Origin: Mobula hypostoma
Lineage: Eukaryota
Length of the DNA stretch: 64,000 bases
Direction: 5' to 3'
NCBI RefSeq assembly: GCF_963921235.1
Contig: NC_086108.1
Coordinates: 15,748,001 to 15,812,000 of the forward strand
Made by a program: the position numbers and the translations under genes. The notes below the pieces were generated by a model. It saw nothing but the letters and a program-made list of their open reading frames with translations. It did not search any database and was not told the origin of the DNA. Position 1 is the stretch's first letter, and each line of letters opens with the position of its first letter. Below are positions 5,951 through 60,601 of this stretch, in pieces.

Positions 5951-6129
5951 ATGCTTTGGCTTTGGTGAATATACTCTGAACTTCATTCCTTACATTGAGA
6001 ATGGGTGTATCAATATATTGCTTTGGAATACAGTACAGCAACATGTGGAATCATCTGGTTCCATTCCAAAAACATAGGCTATCCCACAATAGGAGATGAG
6101 GCAGAATTGTTTCCCCTTTGTAGTACTAT

Positions 6130-6900
6130 AATGCTTGCTAACCAAATGGACACTTCAGATCTATTTGGAGAAACCATGAGCAAAGTGGGCAACCTTTTTG
6201 CAGAACACCTATGCTCAGTCCTTAGTGGCCTTCCTGAGCTCTCAGTTGCAGACCGTTTCAGTTCCCCTATCCATTACCACACTGACCTGCCCATTTCAGT
6301 CGTCTTTACTGCCAGGATGAAGCCCAGCAACACTTGGGTAGACTATGACCCAGTGACATGAGTATTAAGTTTTCTAATTTTAGGTAATCCTTTTCTAACC
6401 CCCCCCCCCCCCAATCTTCCTCCAGTCCTCTAATTTTGTCCCCTTTTTCCACACCAGTCCCCATTTACCATTCACCCATATTTGTCACTCTCCCCCTCCA
6501 GGTTCCCATCCACTTCACACATAATTTCCTCCCATCCACACAGTCTAAGCATATGTCTGTGATAATATTCTGATTCCCATTCTCACCTTCTTTACTTATC
6601 AAAATCCAACACTGATAACACTTTATGCTCCTGCTTATCTGCCTCCAGCAGCTGTCTCCCATCTTTACAATCTTTCCCCTCATTTGCTCCATTTATTCCT
6701 TTTCCCTATTCCTCTGTCTCTTTATCTGCCTCCATCTAACACTCACCTAGCATTGTTTCCCAACACCACCCCCGCTCACCTCCCCTAACAGTCACCACCT
6801 GCCTGTCCTCTTACACCTCCACTCTACCCACCAATTGCCTTACAATCCTTTTTCACTATTTTCCTTTTCTTTATACTGGCCTTCTCACCTCTCCACTCTC
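6130..6900 (+). mobile_element. Decayed Penelope-like 3' fragment (GIY-YIG region + CT-rich tail)
   Basis: LFGET.SKVGNLFAEHLCSV...LSVADRFSS..H.HTD aligns by eye with YIGETRRRLGDRFAEHLRSV...LPVATHFNS.SHSHSD of the 33913 element; followed by pyrimidine-rich tail. Confidence 0.7.
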
Positions 6901-14298: not shown

Positions 14299-17130
14299 TA
14301 TAGAAACATAGAAAATAGGTGCAGGAGTAGGCCATTCGGCCCTTCGAGCCTGCACCGCCATTTATTATGATCATGGCTGATCATCCAACTCAGAACCCAG
14401 CCTTCCCTCCATACCCCCTGACCCCTGTAGCCACAAGGGCCATATCTAACTTCCTTTTAAACATAGCTAATGAACTGGCCTCAACAGTTTGCTGTGGCAG
14501 AGAATTCCACAGATTCACCACTCTCTGTGTGAAGAAGTTTTTCCTAACCTCGGTCCTAAAAGGCTTCCCCTCTATCCTCAAACTGTGACCCCTCGTTCTA
14601 GACCTCCCCAACATCGGGAACAATCTTCCCGCATCTAGCCTGTCCAATCCCTTTAGGATCTTATACGTTTCAATCAGATCCCCCCTCAATCTTCTAAATT
14701 CCAACGAGTACAAGCCCAGTTCATCCAGTCTTTCTTCATATGAAAGACCTGCCATCCCAGGAATCAATCTGGTGAACCTTCTTTGTACTCCCTCTATGGC
14801 AAAGATGTCTTTCCTCAGATTAGGGGACCAAAACTGCACACAATACTCCAGGTGTGGTCTCACCAAGGCCTTGTACAACTGCAGTAGTACCTCCCTGCTC
14901 CTGTACTCGAATCCTCTCGCTATAAATGCCAGCATACCATTCGCCTTTTTCACCGCCTGCTGTACCTGCATGCCCACTTTCAATGACTGGTGTATAATGA
15001 CACCCAGGTCTCGTTGCACCTCCCCTTTTCCTAATCGGCCACCATTCAGATAATAATCTGTTTTCCTATTTTTGCCACCAAAGTGGATAACTTCACATTT
15101 ATCCACATTAAATTGCATCTGCCATGAGTTTGCCCACTCACCCAACCTATCCAAGTCACCCTGCATCCTCTTAGCATCCTCCTCACTGCTAACACTGCCA
15201 CCCAGCTTTGTGTCATCCGCAAACTTGGAGATGCTGCATTTAATTCCCTCATCCAAGTCATTAATATATATTGTAAACAACTGGGGTCCCAGCACTGAGC
15301 CTTGCGGTACCCCACTAGTCACCGCCTGCCATTCTGAAAAGGTCCCGTTTATTCCCACTCTTTGCTTCCTGTCTGCTAACCAATTCTCCACCCACACCAA
15401 TACCTTACCCCCAATACCGTGTGCTTTAAGTTTGCACACTAATCTCCTGTGTGGGACCTTGTCAAAAGCCTTTTGAAAATCCAAATATACCACATCCACT
15501 GGTTCTCCCCTATCCACTCTACTAGTTACATCCTCAAAAAATTCTATGAGATTCGTCAGACATGATTTTCCTTTCACAAATCCATGCTGACTTTGTCCGA
15601 TCATTTCACCGCTTTCCAAATGTGCTGTTATCACATCCTTGATAACTGACTCCAGCAGTTTCCCCACCACCGACGTTAGGCTAACCGGCCTATAATTCCC
15701 TGGTTTCTCTCTCCCTCCTTTTTTAAAAAGTGGGGTTACATTAGCCACCCTCCAATCCTCAGGAACTAGTCCAGAATCTAACGAGTTTTGAAAAATTATC
15801 ACTAATGCATCCACTATTTCTTGGGCCACTTCCTTAAGCACTCTGGGATGCAGACCATCTGGCCCTGGGGATTTATCTGCCTTCAATCCCTTCAATTTAC
15901 CTAACACCACTTCCCTACTAACATGTATTTCGCTCAGTTCCTCCATCTCACTGGACCCTCTGTCCCTTACTATTTCTGGAAGATTATTTATGTCCTCCTT
16001 AGTGAAGACAGAACCAAAGTAATTATTCAATTGGTCTGCCATGTCCTTGCTCCCCATAATCAATTCACCTGTTTCTGTTTGCAGGGGACCTACATTTGTC
16101 TTTATCAGTCTTTTCCTTTTTACATATCTATAAAAGCTTTTACAGTCCGTTTTTATGTTCTCTGCCAGTTTTCTCTCATAATCTTTTTTCCCCTTCCTAA
16201 TTAAGCCCTTTGTCCTCCTCTGCTGAACTCTGAATTTCTCCCAGTCCTCAGGTGAGCCACTTTCTCTGGCTAATTTGTATGCTACTTCTTTGGAATTGAT
16301 ACTATCCCTAATTTCTCTTGTCAGCCACGGGTGCACTACCTTCCTTGATTTATTCTTTTGCCAAACTGGGATGAACAATTGTTGTAGTTCATCCATGCAA
16401 CCTTTAAATGCCTGCCATTGCATATCCACCGTCAATCCTTGAAGTGTCATTTGCCAGTCTATCTTAGCTAATTCACGTCTCATACCTTCAAAGTTACCCC
16501 TCTTTAAGTTCAGAACCTTTGTTTCTGAATTAACTACGTCACTCTCCATGTTAATGAAGAATTCCACCATATTATGGTCACTCTTACCCAAGGGGCCTCT
16601 CACAACAAGATCGCTAATTAACCCTTCCTCATTGCTCAAAACCCAGTCCAGAATAGCCTGCTCTCTAGTCGGTTCCTCGACATGTTGGTTCAAAAAACCA
16701 TCCCGCATACATTCCAAGAAATCCTCTTCCTCAGCACCTTTACCAATTTGGTTCACCCAGTCTACATGTAGATTGAAGTCACCCATTATAACTGCTGTTC
16801 CTTTATTGCACACATTTCTAATTTCCTGTTTAATACCATCTCCGACCTCACTACTACTGTTAGGTGGCCTGTACACAACTCCCACCAGCGTCTTCTGCCC
16901 CTTAGTGTTACGCAGCTCTACCCATATCGATTCCACATCTTCCCGGCTTATGTCCTTCCTTTCTATTGCGTTAATCTCTTTTTTAACCAGCAACGCCACC
17001 CCACCTCCCCTTCCTTCATGTCTATCCCTCCTGAATATTGAATATCCCTGAACGTTGAGCTCCCATCCCTGGTCACCCTGGAGCCATGTCTCTGTGATCC
17101 CAACTATATCATAATCATTAATAACAATCT
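14299..17130 (-). mobile_element. Young 5'-truncated CR1 LINE
   Basis: Uninterrupted ORF2 plus complete 3' UTR with ttctatgtttcta tail. Confidence 0.96.
14390..17128 (-). CDS. CR1 ORF2 (APE endonuclease + reverse transcriptase), open frame truncated at the N-terminus
   Basis: 869-aa ORF plus 43 further open codons (IVINDYDIVGITETWL...); [27 protein letters not shown] intact; no own start. Confidence 0.93.
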   Translation of the reverse strand: MVINDYDIVGITETWLQGDQGWELNVQGYSIFRRDRHEGRGGGVALLVKKEINAIERKDISREDVESIWVELRNTKGQKTLVGVVYRPPNSSSEVGDGIKQEIRNVCNKGTAVIMGDFNLHVDWVNQIGKGAEEEDFLECMRDGFLNQHVEEPTREQAILDWVLSNEEGLISDLVVRGPLGKSDHNMVEFFINMESDVVNSETKVLNLKRGNFEGMRRELAKIDWQMTLQGLTVDMQWQAFKGCMDELQQLFIPVWQKNKSRKVVHPWLTREIRDSINSKEVAYKLARESGSPEDWEKFRVQQRRTKGLIRKGKKDYERKLAENIKTDCKSFYRYVKRKRLIKTNVGPLQTETGELIMGSKDMADQLNNYFGSVFTKEDINNLPEIVRDRGSSEMEELSEIHVSREVVLGKLKGLKADKSPGPDGLHPRVLKEVAQEIVDALVIIFQNSLDSGLVPEDWRVANVTPLFKKGGREKPGNYRPVSLTSVVGKLLESVIKDVITAHLESGEMIGQSQHGFVKGKSCLTNLIEFFEDVTSRVDRGEPVDVVYLDFQKAFDKVPHRRLVCKLKAHGIGGKVLVWVENWLADRKQRVGINGTFSEWQAVTSGVPQGSVLGPQLFTIYINDLDEGIKCSISKFADDTKLGGSVSSEEDAKRMQGDLDRLGEWANSWQMQFNVDKCEVIHFGGKNRKTDYYLNGGRLGKGEVQRDLGVIIHQSLKVGMQVQQAVKKANGMLAFIARGFEYRSREVLLQLYKALVRPHLEYCVQFWSPNLRKDIFAIEGVQRRFTRLIPGMAGLSYEERLDELGLYSLEFRRLRGDLIETYKILKGLDRLDAGRLFPMLGRSRTRGHSLRIEGKPFRTEVRKNFFTQRVVNLWNSLPQQTVEASSLAMFKRKLDMALVATGVRGYGGKAGF

Positions 17131-17424
17131 CTATACTTTCCTCTGATCACCTTAAAATTCTGCCCCCTCATATTAGCCATTTCCACCCTGTGAAAAGGTC
17201 TCTGGCTCTCCAGCTGATCTGTATCACTTTTCATCTTGTACACCTTTATCAAGTTGCCTCTCATCCTCCTTCACTCCAAAGAGAAAAGCCCTAGTTCCTC
17301 AACCTATCCTCAAAAGATATGCCCTCTAATCCAGGCAGCTTTCTGGTAAATCTCCTCTGCACCCTTTCTAAAGCTTCTTCACCACCTTTCTAATGAGGCG
17401 ACCAGAACTGAACACAGTATTGAT

Positions 17425-33198: not shown

Positions 33199-33912
33199 CT
33201 AGTATCTTTCCCGTAATATCATGGGCTCTTAAACAGACTCATGTGCAGTATCTTGTCAAAGGCCTTCTGAAAATTCTGCTTATTATTTCCTTAAAGAATT
33301 CAAGCAGTTTTGTGAGGCAAGATATCGCCGTAAGGAAACTGTACTGTCTTTGGCCTATTTTATCGTGTGTCTCCAAATACCCCGAAATCTCATCCTTAAT
33401 AATGCAATCCAACATCAACTGAAGTCAGACTAACTGGCATATAATTTTCTTTTCTTTGGCCTCCCACCTTTTCAAAGATATTTGTGATTTTCCAGTCCTC
33501 CAGAACCATTCCAGAATCTTGTGATACTTGAAAAATCATTACTAATGCCTCAAGCAATTTCTTCAACTACTCTTTCAGAACCTTGGGGTGTAGTCCATCT
33601 GGTTCATGTGACTTACCTACCTTCAGACCTTTCAGCTTCCCGAGCACATTCTCCTTCGTAATAGAAACTACATTTACTTCATCTCCCTGACGCTCACGAA
33701 TTTCTGGCATACTGCTAGTGTCTTCCACAGTGAAGACTGATACAAACTACTTATTTAATTCATTCATCTTTTCTGTAGTCCCCTATTACTACTTGTCCAG
33801 CATCATTTTCCAGCAGTCCAATAGCCACTTTCTCCTCTCTTTTGCTCTTAATATATCAGAAAAAACTTCTGGTATCCTTTTTTCATATTATTGGCTAGCC
33901 TACCTTCATATT

Positions 33913-35258
33913 CCTTATATACTTCCATCCCCCATCAGGAAGGTCTCAAAGCTCTACGCTTCTTTTTGGATTCCAGACCTAATCAGTTCCCCTCTACCAC
34001 CACTCTGCTCCGTCTAGCGGAATTAGTCCTTACTCTTAATAATTTCTCCTTTTGCTCCTCCCATTTCCTCCAAACTAAAGGTGTAGCTATGGGCACCCGT
34101 ATGGGTCCTAGCTATGCCTGCCTTTTTGTTGGGTTTGTGGAACAATCTATGTTCCGTGCCTATTCTGGTATCTGTCCCCTACTTATCCTTCGCTACATCG
34201 ACGACTGCATTGGCGCTGCTTCCTGCACGCATGCAGAACTCGTTGACTTTATTAACTTTGCCTCCAACTTTCACCCTGCCCTCAAGTTTACCTGGTCCAT
34301 TTCCGACACCTCCCTCCCCTTTCTAGATCTTTCTGTCTCTGTCTCTGGAGACAGCTTATCCACTGATGTCTACTATAAGCCTACTGACTCTCACAGCTAT
34401 CTGGACTATTCCTCTTCTCACCCTGTCTCTTTCAAAAACGCCATCCCCTTCTCGCAATTCCTCCGTCTCCGCCGCATCTGCTCTCAGGATGAGGCTTTTC
34501 ATTCTAGGACGAGGGAGATGTCTTCATTTTTTAAAGAAAGGGGCTTCCCTTCCTCCACTATCAACTCTGCTCTTAAACGCATCTCCCCCATTTCACGTAC
34601 ATCTGCTCTTACTCCATCCTCCCATCACCCCACTAGGAATAGGGTTCCCCTGGTCCTCACCTACCACCCCACCAGCCTCCGGGTCCAACATATTATTCTC
34701 CGTAACTTCCGCCACCTCCAACGGGATCCCACCACTAAGCACATCTTTCCCTCCCCCCTCTCTGCATTCCGCAGGGATCGCTCCCTACACAACTCCCTTG
34801 TCCATTCGTCCCCCCCATCCCTCCCCACTGATCTCCCTCCTGGCACTTATCCGTGTAAGCGGAACAAGTGCTACACATGCCCTTACGCTTCCTCCCTTAC
34901 CACCATTCAGGGCCCCAAACAGTCCTTCCAGGTGAGGCATCACTTCACCTGTGAGTTGACTGGGGTGATATACTGCGTCCGGTGCTCCCGATGTGGCCTT
35001 TTATATATTGGTGAGACCCGACGCAGACTGGGAGACCGCTTTGCTGAACATCTACGCTCTGTCCGCCAGAGAAAGCAGGATCTCCCAGTGGCCACACATT
35101 TTAATTCCACATCCCATTCCCATTCTGACATGTCTATCCACGGCCTCCTCTACTGTAAAGGTGAAGCCACACTCAGGTTGGAGGAACAACACCTTATATT
35201 CCGTCTGGGTAGCCTCCAACCTGATGGCATGAACATTGACTTCTCTAACTTCCGCTAG
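33913..35258 (+). CDS. Penelope-like RT + GIY-YIG endonuclease, open frame without native start
   Basis: SLYTSIP, QTKGVAMGT, RYIDD, LPFLD, YYKPT, Cys motifs, GVIY...YIGET; first codons of the called ORF (33891) lie in flanking CR1/TSD. Confidence 0.92.
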
Positions 35259-35545
35259 GCCCCACCTCCCCCTCGTACCCCATCTGTTACTCATTTTTAT
35301 GCACACATTCTTTCTCTCACTCTCCTTTTTCTCCCTCTGTCCCTCTGAATATACCTCTTGCCCATTCTCTGGGTCACCCCCCCCCGTCTTTCTTCCCGGA
35401 CCTCCTGTCCCATGATCCTCTCGTATCCCCTTTTGCCTATCACCTGTCCAGCTCTCGGCTCTATCCCTCCCCCTCCTGTCTTCTCCTATCATTTTGCATC
35501 TCCCCCTCCCCCTCCAGCTTTCAAATCCCTTACTCACTCTTCCTT

Positions 35546-35587
35546 CAGTTAGTCCTGACGAAGGGTCTCGGCCTGAAATGTCGACTG
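35546..35587 (+). ncRNA. Hammerhead ribozyme motif (type I, minimal)
   Basis: agtc-CTGACGA-agg(gtctcgg)cct-GAAA-tg-TC-gact: catalytic boxes, stem I agtc/gact, stem II agg/cct. Confidence 0.72.
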
Positions 35588-36719
35588 CGCCTCTTCCTAT
35601 AGATGCTGCTTGGCCTGCTGCGTTCACCAGCAACTTTGATGTGTGTTGCTTGAATTTCCAGCATCTGCAGAATTCCTGTTGTCTACCTTCATATTTAATC
35701 TTTTCTCAACTTATGCCTTATTTTAGTACCCTTTTGATAGTTTTTAAAAGCTTCCCACTAATTTTTGCTATATGATATGTCCTTTTTGCTTTTATGCTGT
35801 CTTTGACTTCTCTTATCAGCCTCAGTTGCTTCATCCTTCCTCTAGAATACTTTTTCATCTTTCGGATGAACCTATCCTTCACCTTCAAGCCATTCTGGTT
35901 TGCCGTCGTCCCAGCTAGTTGGTCCTTCATCAATTTTGGCTTCCTCCTCTTCATGTCTCTGTAATTCCAGTTGCCCCACTGCAATATTGATGCATCTGAT
36001 TTTTGCTTCTCCCTCTCAAATTGCAGGATGAAACTATCATATTATGATCACTGTCTCCTTGAGGTTCCTTTGCCTTATGTTCCCTAATGAAATCTGGTTC
36101 ATTCCACAACACCCAATCCAGGATTGCCTTTGCCCCTAGTCTGCTCAACCACAAATTACTCTAAGTAGTCATCTCGTAGGGATTCTACAAATTCCATCTC
36201 TTGTGGATCTAGCACCAGCCTAATTTTCCCAATCTACCTGCATATTGAAGTCTCCCATGACTATCGTAACATTGCCTTTTTTACATGCCTTTTCTATCAT
36301 TGTAATTTGTATTCTACGTCCTGGCTACTTTTCAGAGGCCTCTGTGTAACTCCTGTCAGGGTCTTTTTACTCTTACAGTTTCTTAACAAGGATTCTACAT
36401 CTTCTAATTCTATATCACCTCTTTCTAAGGATTTGAGTTCACTTTTTACCAACAGTGCCACATCCCTCTGCCTACCTGCCTGTCCTTTTGATACAATATG
36501 TATGCTTGGATATTAAGCTCCCAACTGTAATCTTCTGTCAGCCACAACTCGTGCCCACAACAGCATACCAGCCAATCTCTAACTGTGCTACAAGATTATC
36601 TAGCTTATTCTGTATACTGCGTGCATTCAGATATAACACCTTCAGTCCTGTATTCATCACCCTTTTTGATTTTGCTCCCATGTTATACTTCAACTCATCC
36701 CACTGAGTGCAATTTTGCC

Positions 36720-46926: not shown

Positions 46927-49900
46927 TTTCTTTCTTTCTCAACCTTTTTTACGTTTTGAATTGATAAACATCACAATGATAATGATACAAAGGGATCGGG
47001 ATTACATTAATAACGGTTAACATATGCAGATACAGACTCCAAGTAACATATGTAATTTAAGCCTCCCAATCTCTTAATAACTGAACATGAAAAAGATTCA
47101 AAAAATTTTATACAAAGAAAAAGTCCCCCTACACTAAAAAAAAACAAAAAAAAACAAAACAAAACAAAGGCTGGGCTGCCATGTTTCATCGGTTAAAATC
47201 ATTATCTGTCATTAACTCCACTCCTCTGCACAAACAAAAAGTTATTGAAAAGGATTCGGAAAAGGTCAGCTTACATCATATGAAAATATTGAATAAATGG
47301 CCTCCAAGTTTCTTCAAATTTAATCGAAGGATTGATAGTACCACTCCTAATTTTTTCCAAGTTTAAACATGTTATAGTTTGGGAAAACCATTGAAATGTA
47401 GTAGGGGGATTAGAATCTTTGTATTTAAATAAAATGGATCTTCTGACTATTAATGTAACAAATGCAATCAAACGGCAAGCTGAAGGGGATAAATGATCCG
47501 AGTCTATCACTGGTAATCCAAAAATTGCAGTAGTAGGATGAGGTTGTAAATCAATATGCAAAACTACTGAAATAATATCAAAAATGTCTTTCCAATATTT
47601 TTCCAAAAGAGGGCAAGACCAGAACATATGTGTCAAGGAAGCTACCTCAGAATTACAGTACATCTGTCACAGACAGGATTTGTATGGCAATAAAAACGAG
47701 CTAACTTATCCTTAGACCTATGGGCCCTATGAGCCACCTTAAACTGTATCAAAGCAAATCTAGCACACATTGAAGAAGTGTTAACTAGTTGGAGAATTTT
47801 CTCCCATTTCTCTATAGGTAAAGATATCTGAAGTTCTCTTTCCCATTCATTCTTAATTTTATCAGATGTACCTAGACATATATTTGTAATTAACTCATAA
47901 ATAATTGCTATTAAACTCTTCTGATGGGGGTTTAAACCTAAAATTTTTTCTGTAATTTCAGTTTGATGTGATGTCGGAAAAGTAGGTAAAATAACATTCA
48001 AAAGGTTTCTAATCTGTAAATATCTGAAAAAAAATGTGATCTGGGCAAATTATATTTGTTAGACAACTGTTCAAAAGACGAGACAATTATTCATGAATAA
48101 ATTACAAAAACATGTTATTCCCTTCGTTTTTCCATTAAAGAAAAGCTTGATCAGTTCTAGACAGTTGGAAGAAAAAATGGATATAATAGGACTTGATAGG
48201 ATAAATTTATTCAATCCAAAAAATTTAGGAAATTGAAACCATATTCATATTGTATGTTTAGTTATTGGATTAATCGTTTGTTTATTCAGTTTAGTAAGTG
48301 CAAAGGGAAGCGAAGCCCCTAAGATAGAAGCCAATGAGAACACCTGTACAGACTCACACTCAAGGTTCACCCATCGTGGACATTGAATTTCATCCAAATC
48401 TTGTGTCCAGGATGTTAGATATCGAATATTAATTGCCCAATAATAGAATCTAAAGTTCGGCAATGCCAAACCGCCATCCTTTTTTGATTTCTGTAAATAT
48501 TTCTTACTTAACCTAGGATTTTTATTCTGCCATATATATGAAGAAATTTTAGAATCAATAATATCAAAAAAGGATTTAGAGATGAAGATTGGTACCGCCT
48601 GAATTAGATACAGAAATTTAGGTAAAATAATCATCTTAATAGCATTAATTTGACCAATCAATGATAAGGACAATGGGGACCATTTAGTAAGCAGTTGTTT
48701 AACATGATCAATTAAGGGTAAAAAGTTAACTTTATCCTTATGCTTCTTAGTAATTTAGTAATTTTAACACCCAATCATTAATATTTCAGGAAAAAAAAAT
48801 CAATCACCAAATCAGATTCTTAATTATTTTCAAAAACGAACAATTGAAAATAATAAAATAAAATAACAAAGGGAAAAAAAGGAACTTTAACATAAAAGCA
48901 TGATCAACACCCATACTCCAAAACAAAGTACGAGTATTATCAAACTAAGGGCAAAATTCTTCAAACCTTAGAAGTCCAGATCTATGAAATGAGTACAGAC
49001 ATGAAAAAACAGTAAATTGACAGCTGAGATTGAACGTTGATCCTCAAGGAATTGATGAGCTTCGTCCACGGATTTAAACTATTTACGTGATTTATCAGGC
49101 AGGACAACCCTTAGGTGAGCTGGAAATAGCAGAGCTACTTAGAACTTTCTTTGCTAGAGCTCAGACATCACCAGTTTAAAAAGCGATCTTTCTCGCATTA
49201 CCTCAGGACGAAACTTGAGGTCTCCATGTTCAATAACTCCTTTCCGATGGGCAATACGGATTAAATGCTCCTTGCTATGCACATAGTGGAATCGGAGTGT
49301 AACAGGTCGAGGCTTCCACTATTTAGGAGGTTTTGCTCTTAAAGCCCGGTGAACACGATCAAGTATAAGGGGAGTAGAAAAAACTTCAGAGCTGAACACG
49401 TCCATTAAAAATTGAGAAAAGAATTTAGTAAAGTCACCAATCTCAATGTCTTCACAGAGTCCTATTATTCGCAAATTCTGTCTACAACTGCGACTTTCCA
49501 GGTCAATAATCTTGACTTTATGCTGTTCCGGTGTTTGAGTGGTCAAAGTTAATTTCTTTTCCAACAGATTCAGTCGACGATCTCTCTGTCTACCAGCTTC
49601 ATCGAGTTCAGAAATTTGCCGCTGTTGTTTTTCACTCTCCCGCTTAAGTGCTCCCAGTCTACCTTCAATCTCCTTTAACAGTACTTCCAAAGTAGAAAAT
49701 CTTCTATCGAATTTATCATTCAGGAGCTTCTACATAGCCTCCAAAGTGAGTTGAAGCTGTTTAGGATCACCTTCTCTCCTTCCATTTCCATTACCGGCTT
49801 CCTTGTCTTCGGCTGATGCCTTTTTCCCTCTGGTATCCATTTCCAGCAATTAAAAATCAAAGTTCAAGCATATAAAAGTGTTATAAACACTTTAATATAG

Positions 49901-50784: not shown

Positions 50785-52090
50785 CTATACAACAATCAGC
50801 AGAGGAGATAATCCCAGTACAAGAAATCCAACACACCAACAAAGGGTGGATAACCCAAGAAATTCTAGATCTGATGGAACAAAGAAGGTTAGTGAAGAAT
50901 AATGAAGTACAACACAGAGAGCTAGACAGACAGATGAGACAATTGTGCAATATTGCAAAGGAAGAATGGCTGAATTAAAAATGCAATGAAGTAGAAGGCC
51001 ATATTAACAACAGCAAAGAAATGCACAAGAAAATTAAAGGAATTACTGGAATTAAGAAAACCTCCTCTACAGGATGCATAAGATCAGCAGACAGATCCAT
51101 ACTAACAGATCCAGATAAAGTATGTGAGAGGTGGATTCAGTATATACAGCAGCTGTTTGAGGATAATAGAGGGGAACCCCCAGATATTAAACACCCTAAT
51201 TCTGGCCCACCTATTACCAAAGAAGAAATAACTAAAGCAATGAAAAGCATGAAACATGGTAAAGCCACTGGACCTGATGAAATTTCAGTGGAAATGATAT
51301 AAGCCCTAGAAGATCTAGGCATAGATATTCTTTTTGAACTGTTTAATGGCATATATGAGTCTGGTGTATTGCCTGATGATCTCTTGAAATCAGTATTTAT
51401 AACTCTGCTAAAAATTCCTAGAACTATTGACTGCGAAAATTATAGAACAATCAGTGTTATGAGTCACATACTAAAGATTTTGTTGAGAATTGTTCTGAGT
51501 CGAATTAAAAACAAGTTAAGGCCAGAAACTTCTAAACTGCAATATGGGTTTATTGAGGATAGAGGAACTAGGAACACAATTTTCATACTACGAATGCTTT
51601 CAGAAAGGGCAATTGAATATCAGAATGATGACTGTCTATGTTTTATTGATTTCACTAAAGCATTCGACAAAGTGCAACATGAAAAGTTATTTCAAATTTT
51701 CGCTAAACTAAACATTGAAGGAAGGGACCAACAACTGCTTCAAAATTTATATTGAACCAAACAGCGGCGGTTAAAATTGATGATAATATAAGCAGTTGGA
51801 CTAAAATTCAAAGAGGAGTTAGACAGGGATGCGTTGCCTCACCAGAATTGTTTAATATCTATAGTGAAATGATTCTCAGAGAAATGGAAGACCTAGATGG
51901 GATAAAAATTGGAGGTGTTAACATCAATAATATAAGATATGCAGACAATACCACCCTAATAGCATGTGCTGCAGAAGACCTACAAATCCTCCTAGACAAA
52001 GTCGTACAAACAAGCGCAGATTTTGGTCTAACCCTCAACTGTAAAAGAACCAAATGTATGGTAATATCAAAACGGCAGGATATTCCCAAC

Positions 52091-53420
52091 CTATGTTCCC
52101 TCCAAGCTGTGTGCGTGTGCAGACGCACACACGTTTTTCAACCAGCACACAAAGGAAATGTGCGCACAAAAAGTTAGTTACCTAAAATAATGTAGTAATT
52201 AATAATTATACTTATTGAAAATAATCTTTTAGCTAAATGTTTCTGTTAACTAGTTAGTCGGTTTTTCGAATACCACAATGCACGTCACTAATTTACGTCA
52301 CGTCACCTCACCTTTCCTGTTCCAGTTTGTACAGCTGCATCACGGCGGCAGCCATCTTTGGCGGACAGTTTACAAAGATCTGTTTCAAATCCTGTAGATA
52401 GCTTACTAAGTTTTTATTGATAAAGATCAGTCAAATGACCCTGTGGCTAAATACTGTCACAAGAAATTGATAAACATCACATAAAATGTAGCTTTACAGG
52501 CTTTAAGTGATGCCTTTGATGAACTGGCTGTACTGTGCAAGATTCTGCAAAAGAGTGGCCTGACACCGATTGATTCACTTCATTTTACGCAAGGCAAAAT
52601 TAACAAGATAAGAAAGCAGTACCTGGGGGACAATGTTTCGTGGAGTGACAAAGTTAAAGTTTTGCTAAGCTAACAACGTGAAGAAAACGTCACAGTAGAT
52701 ACAAGTTCGCTGCTGACTTTTATAAATAGTCTTTGAGTTCATTTAGAAGAAAGGTTTCCTGAAGATGGGGTACAAGAATGGTCAGCTTTTGATTTCTCCG
52801 CAATTGCAGATTGTGACTTCACATTTGGCGATAAACAAGTTAGTGCCTTATGTCTAAAATATCATGATTTTCTAGCTGAAGATACTGTAATAGTTAGTTT
52901 AATGATTTCAAATTTTCTGTGCAAGGAAAAATTAAATCCAAACTGATTTCAAACTTTGCTTAAATGGTGGCATTTGTACTTTAAAATGAACAGTTTTGCG
53001 ACCTTGCACAGTTGATGAACATTGGGGGAACCTCTCTTGTGTCTAGTACGGACTGTGAGTGAGGTTTTAGCCTAATGAATCAACTCAAAAACAAGCTGAG
53101 AAACCATTTAGGTGAATGTCATTTGGATATGTTAATGAGAATCAAAAGCTATCAATTGGATTGAAGTTCTATTAGTCTAGACAGAGTTTACAAAGAATGG
53201 GTAAATGCCAAAGACAGGAGAGAGAGAAAATAACTGAGTGACTTAAATATGTATGTTATTTCGTTGTTATTCCGTGCAGTTTTATGTCAAATATTTTGTA
53301 AACCTACATAAACTGTGCCATGTGTGCCTTCAGTACGCACATATTTTTGTCACAGGAAAAAAATTTGCACAACATAAGATTTTTGCGCACACTAACTACA
53401 AAAAATTAGAGGGAACATTG
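52091..53420 (+). mobile_element. Internally deleted hAT (Tip100-like) DNA transposon with transposase C-terminal remnant
   Basis: TIRs CTATGTTCCCTC / GAGGGAACATTG; 8-bp TSD TTCCCAAC/CTCCCAAC; SSTDCE*GFSLMNQLKNKLRNHL...LDMLMRI hAT dimerisation motif ~53040-53150. Confidence 0.9.
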
Positions 53421-55039
53421 CTCCCAACTGCCAATTGTACATAGGTAACCAAGAGATTGAACAAAATCTTTAATCAAGCTTTAATTACCTTGGTAGCTTT
53501 ATATCACAAGATACTAGAAGTAAAGTAGAAAGGAAAAGAAGAATTGCCATTGCCAAAACCAACTTCCAAAAAATGAAACCCATTTTTACCAATGGACACA
53601 TTTCTATGACAACAAGGCTTAGGCTACTAAAATGTTACATCTGGTCAATCTTGCTGTATACTTCCAAAACATGGACTATAACACCAGAACTCCAAAGAAA
53701 CTTAGCAGCAACAGAAATGTGGTTTCTTAGAAGAATTCTGAAAATATCATAGGGTAACTAATGAGATAGTACTCCAATGTGCCCACACAAAAAGATCTTT
53801 AATGAGAACATTAAATGAGAGGAAACTTAAATACCTGGGCCATGTCATCAGAAAGGGAGAAATAAAATGCCTTACATTACAAGGCCGTATGCCTGGGAAA
53901 CACGGAAGAGGAAGGCAAAGAAGAAAATATATGGACACTGTGAAAGAACTAACAGATCATTGACGCTGCGAGGGATCGTTCGATGTGGAGAGCCATGATT
54001 GCCCAAGCGTGTAACACGCAAGGCACATGAAGAAGAAGATCAGAAAGCAAGTTTCTGCAGAGCGGTGACTCATAGTTTGGGTGGGTTGGCGAGGCAGATT
54101 GGATATGATGATGGTCTGACTGGTGGGCAATGTAACCTCACTTCATCTAAGCTACTTTCTCAACAGTTCTACTGCTCTTTCTGTTGATCCTTTGTGCTAA
54201 TTTATTCTGTGTTCTATTACCTTTATCTGAGGATACTTTATCAAGTGAGTACTTTGTTTTTGCACTAGTCTAGTCATTTCCCTTGGTCACTTCAAACAGA
54301 CATGCTGAGCCCCCGAGTTCCACCCTTCAGTGTGGTAGCAACCTCCATAACAACCTTGCTGATTAACTCTGACCAATGCTGCCTCAGTTATCAGCAAAAT
54401 TTCTTTAGCTGTGTACAGTTTCTCCCCAGGTTATGAACATCCAACTTATGTACAGTCCATATATTTGAATGAGTGTTCAGGAGATTGGTGGGATAGATTT
54501 GCCAGCTGCTGTGGAGTTGTAGGCATATTCTGCTGTGTGTAAACTCAGTTTGTGGCAATCTGATTGCATATTGCAGAGAAATCTGAATGCTGAGTTGGAA
54601 CACCCTAATTTAACAACACATTGGCCTTGACTGGCTTATGTTTTTATTTAAATATATTGCCACTGATCCGTATTTACAACTTCCAAAGTGTTGCAGGTAC
54701 AAACTGTTCTCAGGAACAGACCCTTATAGTAATCTAAGTAGCATCTGTACATCGGCTCTCTGCTCATGCAAGACATTACTTGGCTGCTGAATTCCATCTG
54801 ACATTAGGCTGGAGATACCCTTTATTTTCCGTTAAAACTCCCAGAATCTTTTTGTATACTATTCAACATAGGTTTCTTCTTTGTTTCTGTGGCTTGATTT
54901 TACACCAAGGAATCAGCCTCACTTGTAGTGTAAACTCCAACAGTCCTGATTTTTAAAAAACTTATATATATATTGAATCATCCTCTCTCCGCCCTCGCCT
55001 TCCTTTCCCCTCATCCCCTCCACCAGCTTCTCCATATGA

Positions 55040-55080
55040 GTGTGTATATATATATATATGTATGTAAAAAACACACACAA
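55040..55080 (+). repeat. (TA)n/(CA)n microsatellite
   Basis: Direct reading. Confidence 0.8.
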
Positions 55081-56125
55081 AATGACGATGGCCCACATGA
55101 ACTCTGGGCTGCAGGGTCTATTTCCTTGCTGTATGCCTCTATGATTCTGACAAAGCTCAGTACTACCCAAAACCAAATCTATCTGTTGATAGAGCTTTAG
55201 GTTTTTGAATTAGTTACTGGCAGATCACATCATTTTTATGTCCACTGCATTTATTTGCCAATCAAAATAACCCGGTGCATATTAATACCAGCCTATGAAA
55301 ACCAGCATGTTGCCCTTTGAAGTATCACTCTTCATCGAAAATGTCTGGTGAACATATTGTAAAATTTAGGCCACCAATGTGGCTTTACAGGAGCATTTCA
55401 AGGCTTTTGTGTATGATGTATCTGACACATGTTGTCCAACACATGTGGCAAGCCTCAAACAATCAAGAATAGCATCTTTCATATGATAACAGGTCCCAAA
55501 CTGCTCACATAAGAATCAAGAGCATACATTTAAGAAGGGAGAGATTTAATAGGAACTTGAGAGGCAAATTTTTTTACACAAAGAGTAAAAGGTATGTATG
55601 TGAAGTGAGTTGCAAGAGTCATAGAGAAGTACAGCACAGAAACAGGCCCTTCAGCCCATCTAGTCCATGCCAAAATCATTTAAGCAGCCTACTCCATCGA
55701 CCTGCACCAGGACCATAGCCCTCCATATCCCTACTATCCATGAACCTCTCCAAACTTCTCTTAAAAGTTAAAATTAAGCTTGCATGCACCACATACTGGC
55801 AACTCATTCCACACAAGTTAAAAGTTCCCCTTAAACTTTTCACTTTTCACCTTAACCCATGACCTCTGGTTGTAGTCCCACCCAACCTCAGTGGAAAAAG
55901 CCTGCTTACATTTAACCTATCACTTACATTCTAAATAATAAAATCCTAATCTATTCAGTCTTTCCTTATAACTCAAGTCCCCCAGACCCGGCAACAACTT
56001 TGTAAATTTTCTCAACACTCTCTCAACCTTGTTTACATCTTTCCTGTAGGTAGGTCACCAAACTGCACACCAATTAGGCCTCACCAATGTCTTATACAAT
56101 TTCAACATAACATCCCATCTCCTGT

Positions 56126-56306
56126 CACAAACAAGAGAAAATGTGAAGATGCTAGAAATCTGAGCAACACACATAAAAACACGGGGGAATTCAGCAGTTT
56201 TTTCTCCAGTCCTGCCGAAGGGTTTCAGCCTGACACATCGACTGTACAGCTTTTTCCATAGATGCTGCCTGGCCTGCTGATTTCCTCCAGCATTTTGTGT
56301 GTGTTG
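56126..56306 (+). mobile_element. Penelope-tail insertion with inverted 5' segment; hammerhead core mutated
   Basis: 14-bp TSD ATCCCATCTCCTGT 56112-56125/56307-56320; 56126-56195 is antisense tail end, remainder sense. Confidence 0.88.
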
Positions 56307-57250
56307 ATCCCATCTCCTGTACTCAATACATTGATTTATGAAAGCCAATGTGCCAAAAGTTTTCTTTTTTGACCCCATCTACCTGTGATGCCACTTTCAA
56401 CTAATTATGGACCTGTATTCCCAGATCCCTTTGATTTACCACACTCCTCAGTGCCCTAGCATTCACTGTAGAAGACCTACTCTGGTAAAACACTGTAAAA
56501 CCTTGCACTAATAAATTCCATCTGCCATTTTTCACCCCATTTTTCCAGCTGATGCAGATCCCTCTGCAAGCCATGACAGCCTTCCTCATTGTTATCTACA
56601 CCCCCAATCTAGGTGTCATCAGCAAATTTGCTGATCCAGTTAACCACATTATCATTCAGATCATTGATATAGATGACAAACAACAAAGGACCCAGCACCG
56701 ATCTCTGTGGCACAGCACTAGTCACGGGCCTCCAGTTAGAGAGGCAATCTTCTGTTACCACTCTCTAGTTCTCCCACAAAGCCAATGTCTAATCCAATTT
56801 ACAATCTCATCCTGAATGCCAAGTGTCTGAACTTTCTTGACTAGCACTCGGGACCTTGTCAAATGCTTTACTAAAGTCCATGTTGACAACATCCACTGCC
56901 TTGTCTTCATCCACTTTCCTGGTAACTTCCTTTAAGATTGGTTATACGTGACCTACCACTCGCAAAGCCATGTTGACTATCCTTAATCAGTCCATGTCTA
57001 TCCAAATACTTATATGTCTGGTCCCTTAGAATACCTTCCAATAACTTTCCCACAACTGATGTCATACTCACTGGCCTATAATTTCCTGGTTTATGTTTAC
57101 ACCCATTTTTAAACAGCAGAACAGCATTGGCTATCATCCAATCCTCCAGTACCTCTCCTGTCACAAAGGATGTTTTAGATATCTATTCAAGGGTCCCAGC
57201 AATTCCTGCACTTGCCTCCCGTAGGGTCCAAGGAACCACATTGTCAGGTC

Positions 57251-57427
57251 AAAAAAAAACGCAAACAACAGGAATTCTGCAGATGCTGGAAATTCAAGCA
57301 ACACACATAAAAGTTGCTGGTGAACGCAGTAGGCCAGGCAGCATCTCTAGGAAGAGGTGCAGTTGACGTTTCAGGCCGAGACCCTTCGTCAGGACTAACT
57401 GAAAGAAGAGTGAGTAAGGGATTTGAA
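57251..57427 (-). mobile_element. Penelope-tail insertion with intact hammerhead core
   Basis: 11-bp TSD ATTGTCAGGTC 57240-57250/57428-57438; minus strand agtc-CTGACGA-agggtctcggcct-GAAA-cg-TC-aact. Confidence 0.92.
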
Positions 57428-57648
57428 ATTGTCAGGTCCTAGGGATTTATCCACCCTGAAATGCTGCCAGGTAGCAAATACCTCCTCCTCTATTATCTCT
57501 GCAAGCTCCATGAAATTGATGCTGCTTTGCCTCACTTCTATAGATTCCATATCCATCTCCTGGGTAAATACAGATTCAAAGAATTCATTTAAGATCTCCC
57601 TTATCCATTTTGGCTTCACATATGGATTACCATTCTGGTCTTCCAGAG

Positions 57649-58426
57649 CAGGGGTCCCCAACCTTTTTTGCACCGCGGACCGGTTTAATATTGACAATAT
57701 TCTTGCGGACTGGCTGACCTGGGGGGAGGGGGTGTTCAAGTAGGGTTAAAATCACCTCAACATGTCTTTTACAGTTAGGGTTGCCAACTTTCTCACTCCC
57801 AAATAAGGGACAAAAGTAGCAGTCAAATCCTGGGACACTTGTATTTACCCCGAGAAAGACTACCATGACCATGAAGCCTTGCACGGGCACCTGTGTGTGC
57901 ATGCATGACGTGCGCATGTGTGTATGTGCCGATTTCACCCCCCCCAATCGCTTTTGCCTTCATCTTCCTGACTATACTGTACATACATTGTTTCTACTTT
58001 ATATAGGCTGTGTATTTATCATATCATTCCTGCTTTTACTATTTTTATTTATTTTTATTTTTATTTATTTTCAGTTTTATGTGTTATTTGGTATGATTTG
58101 TTAGGTTATTTCTTGGGTCTGGGAACACTCAAAAAATTTTCCCATATAAATTAATGGTAATTGTTTCTTTGCTTCACGCCATTTCGGCACGAAAGCTTTC
58201 ATAGGAATGCTGTACCTTAGCGGGGGAAATACGGACAATCCAATTTAGCCCAATACATGGGATGTCCCGGCAAATACGGGATGTCCCGCAAATACAGGAC
58301 AGTTGGTAACCCTATGTTCAAGTTCAACAGTGCGTGACAGGGGATGAGGAAAGGTGCAGCTGACTCATATCGTTCCCTCACGGCCTGGTAGCACATGCTT
58401 TGCGGCCCAGTAGTTGGGGACCGCTG
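57649..58426. mobile_element. hAT (Charlie-like) non-autonomous element containing a second hAT-like element
   Basis: Ends CAGGGGTCCCCAAC / GTTGGGGACCGCTG; 8-bp TSD TTCCAGAG 57641-57648/58427-58434. Confidence 0.92.
57741..58314. mobile_element. Nested hAT-like element with TAGGGTT termini (Blackjack-like)
   Basis: TAGGGTT.../...AACCCTA; 8-bp TSD TGTTCAAG 57733-57740/58315-58322; subterminal GGGA(C/T) repeats. Confidence 0.8.
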
Positions 58427-58560
58427 TTCCAGAGGACCAATTTTGCCCTGCAATCCTTTTGCTCTTAACATATCTGCAGAATCCCTTAGGATTCTCCTTT
58501 ACCTTGGCTGCTAGGATAACTTCATGCCTTATTTTAGCCCTCCTGATTTCTTTCTTAAGT

Positions 58561-58672
58561 AACAAACACAAAATGCTGGAGGAACTCAGCTGGCTAGGCA
58601 GCATCTATGGAAAAGAGTACAGTCGACATCTCGGGCAGAGACCCTTCATCAGGACTGAAGGGTCCTGGCCTA
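58561..58672 (-). mobile_element. Penelope-tail insertion with short inverted segment
   Basis: Minus agtcCTGATGAagggtctctgcccGAGAtgtcgact; plus-strand tgaagggtcctggcct stub; candidate TSD TAAGT 58556-58560/58673-58677. Confidence 0.82.
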
Positions 58673-59164
58673 TAAGTGTTCTCTTGCTTTACTTGTACTC
58701 CATAAACATATTATTGTTCCTACTTGCCTATAACTGCTGTGCCCCTCCTTTTTTCTCTTAACCAGGGCTTCAATATCTCTTGAAAGCCAATGTTTTCTAC
58801 ACTTTTATCTTTATCTTTTATTCTGACAGGCACATATAAGCTTTGTACTCTCAAAATTCATTTTTGAAGGCCTCCCACTTTTCAAATATACCTTTGCCTC
58901 ACTAGTTGAGTTCTCCAGTCTGTCCTGATGGAGCACTGCATTATATTTTCCCTGACCACTGATGCCACCCCTCCTCCTTTAATCCCTCACGTTCTGTCAC
59001 GTATGAAACAATGGAACCCCAGTATAATGAGCTGCCAGTCCTGCCGTCATGCAACCAAGCCCATCATAATTCCAGGTGTTGATTCATGCCCTGACCTCAT
59101 TCGCCTTTCCTCCGACACTTCTTACATGACATAAACACGGCTCAGGACACTAGTCGCACCATGA

Positions 59165-59299
59165 CCTGACGAAGGGTCTCGGCCCGAAACGTCGACTCTA
59201 CCTCTTCCTAGAGATGCTGCCTGGCCTGCTGCGTTCACCAGCAACTTTTATGTGTGTTGCTTGAAATCCCAGCATCTGCAGATTTCCTCGTGTTTGCGT
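59165..59299 (+). mobile_element. Penelope-tail insertion beginning at the hammerhead core
   Basis: cCTGACGAagggtctcggcccGAAAcgTCgact ... gtttgcgt; no TSD seen. Confidence 0.88.
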
Positions 59300-59754
59300 A
59301 ATCCTCCTAGTACTGGCCTTACTGGCACGTGGCAAGAGTAGCAATCTGAAAATCACAACCCTGTAGGCCCTGCCCTTTAACTGAGCACTTAACTCCCTGA
59401 ACTCCCCATGCAGAACCTCGTTACTTGTCCAACCCATGTCATTATTACCTACATGGACCACAACCTCTGCCTGTTCACCTTCCCAGAAGAATGCTGAGGA
59501 TTCGATCCGAGATGACCCAGACTCTGGCAGCCAGGAGACAACATACCATCGGGAAATCTCGTTCTCACCCACAACTTCCTGTCCATTCCCCTACCAACAA
59601 ATCTCCTAACCCCACAGCGCGCCTCTTCTCCCCCCTTCCCTTTGGAGTCACAGAGCCAGATTCAGTGCCAGAGACCCAACCATTGTGACATTCCTCTGTT
59701 AGGTTATCCCTCCCCCAGCAGTACCCATAGTGGTATACCTGTTGTTCAGGGGGA

Positions 59755-59950
59755 TTTATTTGCAGAGGAAGTATTTGAGACAAGTACAATAACAATTTTT
59801 AAAAGACAGTTGGACAGGTGCATGGATTGGAAAGGTTCTGATCCAAACAATAACAAATGGGCCTAGCTTTGATGGGTCATCGTTGCTGGCATAGGCCATT
59901 TGAGCCAAAGGGCCTGTTTCTGTGCTGTACAACTGTAAGAACTCTATGAA
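59755..59950 (+). mobile_element. Decayed CR1 3' end
   Basis: TIFKRQLDRCMD; gggcctgtttctgtgctgtac terminus. Confidence 0.75.
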
Positions 59951-60601
59951 GAAGTCTTACCAGATGTTCCAGTGAGCAAGGTTAGGATAGGGGGCTAACG
60001 AATGGGCTAAAAATTCACATAGAAGAGTAATTCTATATCCTTATTAACTCTTTATTCTATTCTTTGTAATTGTTGAATGTTTTTGTGACATGTTGCACCA
60101 ACACACCACAGCAAATTCCTGATATTTGTAAATCTATATGGCAAGTAAAGTTGATTCTTGATCCTTGATGTGGTAGGATTGAAGTATGTGGAGAGGCAGA
60201 GGAGCTCAAAGGAAATATTTTCAGAAATTAGGCATATAGGTAGTGAAGGGGAGCAACTGTAAAGGATGGAAGATCTTTAAGAGGCCAAATATGAAAGAAC
60301 ATCATGATTGTGGTGGGTTGTACATGCCAGAGGTGGTTACAGATCTAGGCAGTGTAGTGAATTGAAAAAACTAATAGTTTCAGCTTAACCACTTCCAGCT
60401 GCAGGTATTTAAGATGAACATCCTTGTGACTGTGGTTAACTGAGGCTAGCTTAGTGGAATTATTAGTGACGTAGAGAATGGAAAGTTCCTGTCTATAGCA
60501 TTGTTCTTTCCTCCTTTTTGTCATGAGTTGTGCTGTGTTGGTTAACTGCTTCACATATCTCATTTCCAAGAGGAAGCTCATTGTTGGTTTCACCTTCGCA
60601 G

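Follow-up and report, generated by a model that had tools for sequence, protein, structure and literature searches.

Solo hammerhead-tail insertions within one CR1 copy of Mobula hypostoma: probable 5'-truncated copies from at least two subfamilies of a Penelope-like element

Introduction

Why should four short non-coding inserts, each consisting of the tail of a Penelope-like element (PLE) around its hammerhead ribozyme motif, be found within one CR1 copy in the genome of Mobula hypostoma? The stretch analysed in this study, hereafter the window, comprises 64,000 nucleotides of the forward strand of contig NC_086108.1 (RefSeq assembly GCF_963921235.1, positions 15,748,001 to 15,812,000), and all coordinates given below refer to it. 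The initial annotation of the window had offered two explanations for these inserts, that is, a non-autonomous family resembling short interspersed nuclear elements (SINEs) or retrozymes and mobilised by the Penelope reverse transcriptase (RT) and GIY-YIG endonuclease, or stalling of the RT at the ribozyme fold, and it had further suspected a local hotspot of insertion. We observed that the inserts are probably independent, extremely 5'-truncated insertions, made by the endonuclease and RT of an autonomous Neptune/Nematis-type element of at least two subfamilies, and not a separate short element. With reference to the literature, no studies of Penelope 5' breakpoints in relation to the hammerhead, nor of the family of this element in cartilaginous fish, were found in searches conducted mostly without full texts.

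Results

A hammerhead-tail profile search of the window disclosed seven segments at six loci with E below 1e-4, while four more matches were all at E 1.6 or worse. The six loci are the four inserts, referred to here as A (two segments), B, C and D, and two longer copies, L35 and L25. The reference long copy L35 (33913-35682, + strand) is a 5'-truncated Penelope-like copy that harbors the C-terminal half of the RT, a CX4CxxC linker, the GIY-YIG domain, a pyrimidine-rich untranslated region (UTR), the hammerhead and the long 3' end; its open frame runs to 35258, with the stop codon at 35256-35258, and it is flanked by a 13 bp duplication. The second copy L25 (24995-25709, + strand) contains the GIY-YIG part, the UTR, the hammerhead and the short 3' end, and no clear duplication was detected in its flanks. 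The GIY-YIG domain was matched in the two copies at E 7e-4 and 3e-4, slightly short of the Pfam cut-off. A search of longer proteins recovered 173 relatives of the open reading frame (ORF) of L35 among 5,929 candidates, the best of which showed 54% identity over 99% of the query, and the top ten were 798-955 aa in length, with RT matches in Pfam and, in many of them, GIY-YIG.

The CX2-5CxxC linker between RT and endonuclease and the CCHH motif, which mark the Neptune/Nematis clades (PMC8557442), are both visible in the translation of 33852-35258. Since the CX4CxxC linker, which Penelope/Poseidon lack, is present, the parent element would be of Neptune/Nematis type, an assignment made by the linker and CCHH motifs. 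The parent also displays the features of an endonuclease-bearing (EN+) PLE, namely an ORF with RT and C-terminal GIY-YIG, a hammerhead, an optional tail and an inverted truncated neighbour, the last seen in A and weakly in C; no full-length copy with an upstream pseudo-long terminal repeat (pseudo-LTR) and a complete ORF was found within the 64-kb window. Contigs of four sequencing runs were aligned to the 900 bp at 34784-35683 at 85% likeness, and 250,087 and 218,417 contigs of two DNA runs were recorded, suggesting a very high copy number, though contig depth is not copy number.

The four inserts, reported earlier at 56126-56306, 57251-57427, 58561-58672 and 59165-59299, are real, as each matches the tail end of L35 and L25. 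The description of them as plain tail around the hammerhead does not hold for A, which is an inverted pair, nor for C, which has a fold-back. Duplications had been noted beside three of them, and these were confirmed at exactly 14, 11 and 5 bp. In insert A, the 14 bp duplication (left copy 56112-56125, + strand; right copy 56307-56320) encloses an inverted arm (56126-56197, - strand), with about 72 nt of tail reaching the long 3' site and no hammerhead, and a direct arm of 109 nt (56198-56306, + strand), with a hammerhead mutated at A6 and A14 and the tail to the short 3' site. Both arms are of subfamily 2 and are joined head-to-head, with an overlap of 33 nt in which 26 positions are identical. 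Insert B (57251-57427, - strand; 11 bp duplication at 57240-57250/57428-57438) is of subfamily 1, is 95% identical to 35520-35682, and comprises 35 nt upstream of the hammerhead, the intact core, the tail to the long 3' site and a 9-T run. This run stands on the forward strand as nine A at 57251-57259, at the first-synthesised end of B and beyond the tail, and the contig loose ends behind the tail are likewise T-rich; it is possibly a product of slippage or untemplated addition at the RT start.

Insert C (58561-58672, - strand; 5 bp duplication at 58556-58560/58673-58677) is of subfamily 2 and harbors a hammerhead mutated at A14 and the tail to the short 3' site, with the fold-back, an inverted helix II piece of about 14-16 nt, at its 5' junction (about 58659-58672). 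Insert D (59165-59299, + strand), of subfamily 1, contains an intact core, though without the 5' arm of helix I, and the tail to the long 3' site; no duplication was found at its edges. Relative to a CR1 paralogue at 30.1-30.5 kb, the host CR1 lacks about 335 bp across D, so that the RT may not have produced the 5' end of D.

On their 3' side the seven segments use just two sites, separated by 34-40 nt: the short site (L35 position 35648) was used in L25, C and the direct arm of A, and the long site in L35, B, D and the inverted arm of A. The long 3' end was also among the top-listed contig loose ends of two organisms, followed by T-rich letters (behind 35677, at least 450 and at least 378 records), and an opposite-strand joint 35552-35640, similar to that of A, was recorded in three contigs each of runs X1 and X5. 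In the Poseidon element of the lizard Anolis carolinensis (PAc), the RT starts at two internal sites, the sequence between them forming the optional tail of 30-40 bp; cutting and extension take place on both target strands, and the hammerhead need not cleave (PMC11167929). Like the element studied here, PAc has two fixed 3' ends about 35-40 nt apart and roughly 90-130 nt downstream of a hammerhead that is copied uncut, and its extension of both strands in vitro fits insert A, but the CX4CxxC linker found here is absent from Penelope/Poseidon. The two 3' ends match this published optional tail arising from internal RT initiation.

Heavy 5' truncation, an adjacent inverted truncated copy and a tail at one end only have been described for PLEs (PMC8557442; PMC3846280), and insert A can be compared to this structure in miniature. 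The canonical EN+ PLE insertions of these sources share with ours the 5' truncation, the inverted copy, the 30-40 bp tail at one end, a variable duplication length and some junctions without duplication; they differ in that the units found here are only 70-170 nt long and without ORF sequence, with A as an inverted pair of that small size.

In the 92 columns common to the copies, B and D show 90-92% identity with L35 and L25, and 95% with one another, whereas A and C are 85% identical to each other and 74-79% to the rest. A tree of the six rows separated A and C from the other four with a support of 100/99, its remaining forks being open. As judged from these comparisons, the four inserts belong to two subfamilies and not to one family. 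The common 3' ends, the duplications and the 90-92% identity that B and D share with ORF-bearing copies support the part of the earlier proposal in which the inserts were mobilised by the Penelope RT and GIY-YIG endonuclease.

By its core boxes and pairing, the hammerhead of the element is a minimal type I motif, with an extra A before helix II, helices I and II of 4 bp and a palindromic helix III. Core base C3 lies at 35555 in L35, and the cut is predicted after 35582. Across the six rows 55 of the 60 helix cells pair, but no compensatory changes were found among them and the pair counts were no better than those of shuffles, and a search against Rfam gave no hammerhead match at E up to 1. 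Only B retains the core together with most of helix I, and the predicted folds of B and D are no stabler than shuffles (z -1.08 and -0.80). The minimal type I hammerheads of metazoan PLEs (PMC4209133) display the same core boxes, an extra base between 9 and 10.1, G10.1-C11.1, a helix I of 4-5 bp and a palindromic helix III, and are mostly solo. Differences lie in helix II, with 4 bp here and 7-8 bp in the Schistosoma families, and in the mutated cores of A and C and the lost helix I arm of D. The same paper states that the minimal motif with its palindromic helix III needs a dimer and that a single tested motif did not cleave, and it already reads solo minimal hammerheads as probably truncated PLEs. 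A working dimer between neighbouring inserts was considered and rejected, as their strands alternate, the cores of A and C are mutated and D is without its 5' arm of helix I. Pattern scans of viral contigs and of metagenome contigs gave no loci.

Relative to C3, the 5' ends lie at about +60 in the inverted arm of A, at -1 in D, -5 in C, -14 (approximately) in the direct arm of A and -35 in B, and at -618 and -1642 in the long copies. Neither the cut site (+27/+28) nor the 3' foot of the fold coincides with the 5' end of any of the seven segments. The earlier observation that the inserts all start within about 40 nt upstream of the core is valid for the four hammerhead-bearing segments (-1 to -35), with the end of D doubtful, but not for the inverted arm of A.

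The host CR1, a long interspersed nuclear element (LINE) at 55618-59727 (- strand), is decayed, with ORF2, part of ORF1 and 8 stops in 432 aligned residues. It aligned collinearly with one CR1 paralogue at 19.4-22.3 kb across A, B and C to the left edge of D; the right flank of D is possibly a second CR1 piece. A further deletion of about 470 bp was noticed in its ORF2 at 58898/58900, with no insert at the junction. An unrelated insert at 57649-58426 (no strand assigned) is DNA-transposon-like and presumably hAT-like, with terminal inverted repeats and an 8 bp duplication; it appears to enclose a further element, at about 57776-58315, which has inverted ends as well. Of the 64,000 bases of the window, 30,820 are covered by matches to CR1 ORF2 alone, and one of these copies, at 14390-17146 (- strand), is young among decayed ones, with a CR1 ORF2 of 918 residues without stop and with endonuclease and RT domains. 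Decayed frames at 47271-49729 (- strand) and 50979-52177 (+ strand) are presumably of an L1/Tx1-type and an RTE-type LINE, respectively. A frame at 5999-6361 (+ strand) resembles part of a different Penelope-like RT and gave no Pfam match; a short match to L25 near 6186-6221 lies inside it.

Discussion

The inserts are ordinary Penelope-like debris, laid down in patterns already described for PLEs. In the process envisaged here, the GIY-YIG nuclease would make a staggered cut, leaving the duplications of 5-14 bp that were observed, and the RT would begin within the RNA of the element, either about 93 nt or about 127-133 nt downstream of the hammerhead core; the two fixed 3' ends are observed in this study, and the internal initiation itself is taken from the lizard element (PMC11167929). 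Synthesis of the cDNA would end after about 70-170 nt, and the product would be joined to the other end of the target. In A, both cut ends appear to have acted as primers, which would yield two head-to-head copies in inverted orientation, only one end of which has the tail; in C, a small fold-back would have formed; and in D, the joining or a later deletion would have taken out about 335 bp of the target. The hammerhead would be a passenger that is copied uncut. The copies would have decayed afterwards, and they may be grouped mainly because an old CR1 was long exposed to a very high-copy family.

Several observations weigh against this account. The chance of any 34 nt window holding four of the seven 5' ends is P = 0.011-0.015 if lengths are log-uniform or exponential, and the median summed contig depth over the hammerhead-tail is about twofold that over the ORF (2.1 and 2.0 in the two DNA runs). 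Grouping of the short copies alone was not rejected among the six rows (approximately unbiased (AU) test, p = 0.066), and there is no long copy of subfamily 2 within the 64-kb window. Again, internal initiation has been demonstrated for a Poseidon element and not for a Neptune/Nematis-type one (PMC11167929).

The position of the 5' ends leads to a proposal that refines the truncation of an autonomous element rather than competing with it, and which we advance tentatively: many of the short copies could be run-off products of a transcript starting shortly upstream of the hammerhead. The RT would bind the tail, close to the 5' end of this RNA, and copy as far as that end, like a strong-stop cDNA, such that the 5' ends would indicate where transcription starts, or else a splice junction located at helix I. 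The ends at -1, -5, -14 and -35, with none at the cut site, fit this, and in vitro a shorter RNA 5' end gives a shorter product, with uncut RNA as the main substrate (PMC11167929). In the Penelope element of Drosophila virilis, transcription starts within the pseudo-LTR, 46 nt ahead of an intron of 75 nt (PMC2377424), and this intron ends at helix I (PMC4209133). However, the four ends are spread over 34 nt, the deletion at D and the fold-back in C compromise two of them, and the P of the bunching rises to 0.13 under a short-heavy mixture and to 0.06-0.31 when D is left out, all the length models used here and above being our own assumptions.

A pyrimidine tract ending in CAG was noticed directly before helix I in both subfamilies (35535-35548 and 56198-56209, both + strand), its position being -8 in subfamily 1 and, in A, the edge of helix I. 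This weak motif may represent a splice acceptor or an initiator, and it stands where the intron of the D. virilis element likewise ends.

The contig data were examined at this edge as well. The twofold depth step, which would agree with run-off, lies at 35534-35563, the depth being flat over about 750 bp upstream in both DNA runs, and contig loose ends pile before 35551/35552 in runs X1 and X17, with low agreement (0.40-0.41). Nevertheless, the conserved GIY-YIG end displays an equal twofold peak (2.1 and 2.25), which shows that cross-family alignment alone gives such steps. Both the step and the pile are confounded by other subfamilies that align in the conserved parts only: the pile coincides with the point at which subfamily 2 ceases to align to the reference, a sequence of subfamily 1, and the consensus of the pile ends in a pyrimidine string that resembles the upstream letters of A itself. 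On the contig data, an excess of 5' ends at the hammerhead edge is neither demonstrated nor excluded, and their gathering just upstream of the core is a modest lead. If the excess is real, run-off fits it better than stalling does, and an internal RT start combined with transcripts beginning just upstream of the hammerhead might then, as a tentative suggestion, yield a programmed run-off cDNA that integrates alone.

It is unlikely that the CR1 copy is a true insertion hotspot, as had been suspected from the four inserts it carries. Four of the six loci lie within 3039 bp, for which p = 0.005 under uniform placement in the window and 0.001 on host-only distance, but these values are nominal for a cluster chosen after the fact. 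The departure from random placement is sensitive to the copy rate, as the chance per window of such a cluster is 0.015, 0.09, 0.30 and 0.58 at assumed 6, 10, 15 and 20 copies per 64 kb. The host, with 1.85 stops per 100 residues, is the third highest of 14 CR1 copies (grouped by hand) and also took the unrelated DNA transposon; the three CR1 copies in which these elements lie all fall within 1.0-2.0 stops per 100 aa, and the 8 of the 14 copies below 1.0 carry none. The inserts, moreover, come from two subfamilies and lie on both strands, and no common target motif was found in the four duplications. The age of the host and the after-the-fact choice explain the cluster adequately.

The view that A and C, or all four inserts, represent an independent non-autonomous family, SINE-like or a monomeric retrozyme mobilised in trans, is quite improbable. 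It draws on the fact that A and C resemble one another (85%) more than they do either of the window's long copies, and since subfamily 2 lacks a long copy there, a small chance is left that it propagates as a short element. The AU test, which leaves a clade of short copies standing, points the same way, but the division into two subfamilies, with A and C split from B and D, does not accord with one. PLE-derived retrozymes with monomers have been reported in vertebrates, including one chondrichthyan (bioRxiv 10.64898/2026.07.22.740005), and one joint 35661/35551 in contigs of run X5 could be a tandem unit. However, the four inserts have four different 5' ends, there is no array of tandem hammerhead units in 55000-60500, and the profile search of the window gave single motifs only. 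No RNA polymerase III B box was detected in the inserts on either strand, and the A box had just two matches, each with two mismatches. A defined consensus was obtained for the contig loose ends that follow the stop codon and for those that precede the hammerhead, which suggests long copies in other subfamilies. Non-LTR retrozymes resemble the inserts in their type I hammerhead, their relation to PLE pseudo-LTRs and their non-coding nature, but by definition they consist of tandem repeats in which every unit has its hammerhead (PMC7229834; bioRxiv 10.64898/2026.07.22.740005), and the inserts are single copies, differently truncated.

Stalling of the RT at the folded ribozyme, or its fall from a self-cleaved 5' end, is very unlikely. 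In its favour, the fold-back of C joins at the 5' arm of helix I and copies helix II, the cores of B and D are intact and most helix cells pair. However, an RT that travels 3' to 5' should halt at the 3' foot or the cut site, where none of the seven ends, and each of the four hammerhead-bearing segments instead traverses the core completely, its end lying at the 5' edge or past it. The need for a dimer (PMC4209133), folds no stabler than shuffles and the lack of a pile at 35583 among the best 24 of about 3,400 loose-end rows stand against it as well.

In a different clade, the insertions correspond neatly, at the genomic level, to what was found in vitro, namely that the RT starts at two internal sites and that both strands are primed. 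For the questions of which template the Penelope cycle uses and what the hammerhead does in it, a family so abundant would permit the RNA 5' end, cleavage and splicing to be tested from genomic junctions alone. The finding would gain in weight should 5' ends prove to be in excess at the upstream edge of the hammerhead throughout the genome. If run-off were true, solo hammerhead-tail units would be a regular by-product of the Penelope cycle that maps the template's 5' end, and the mass of single minimal hammerheads in animal genomes would be explained without a separate SINE or cleavage.

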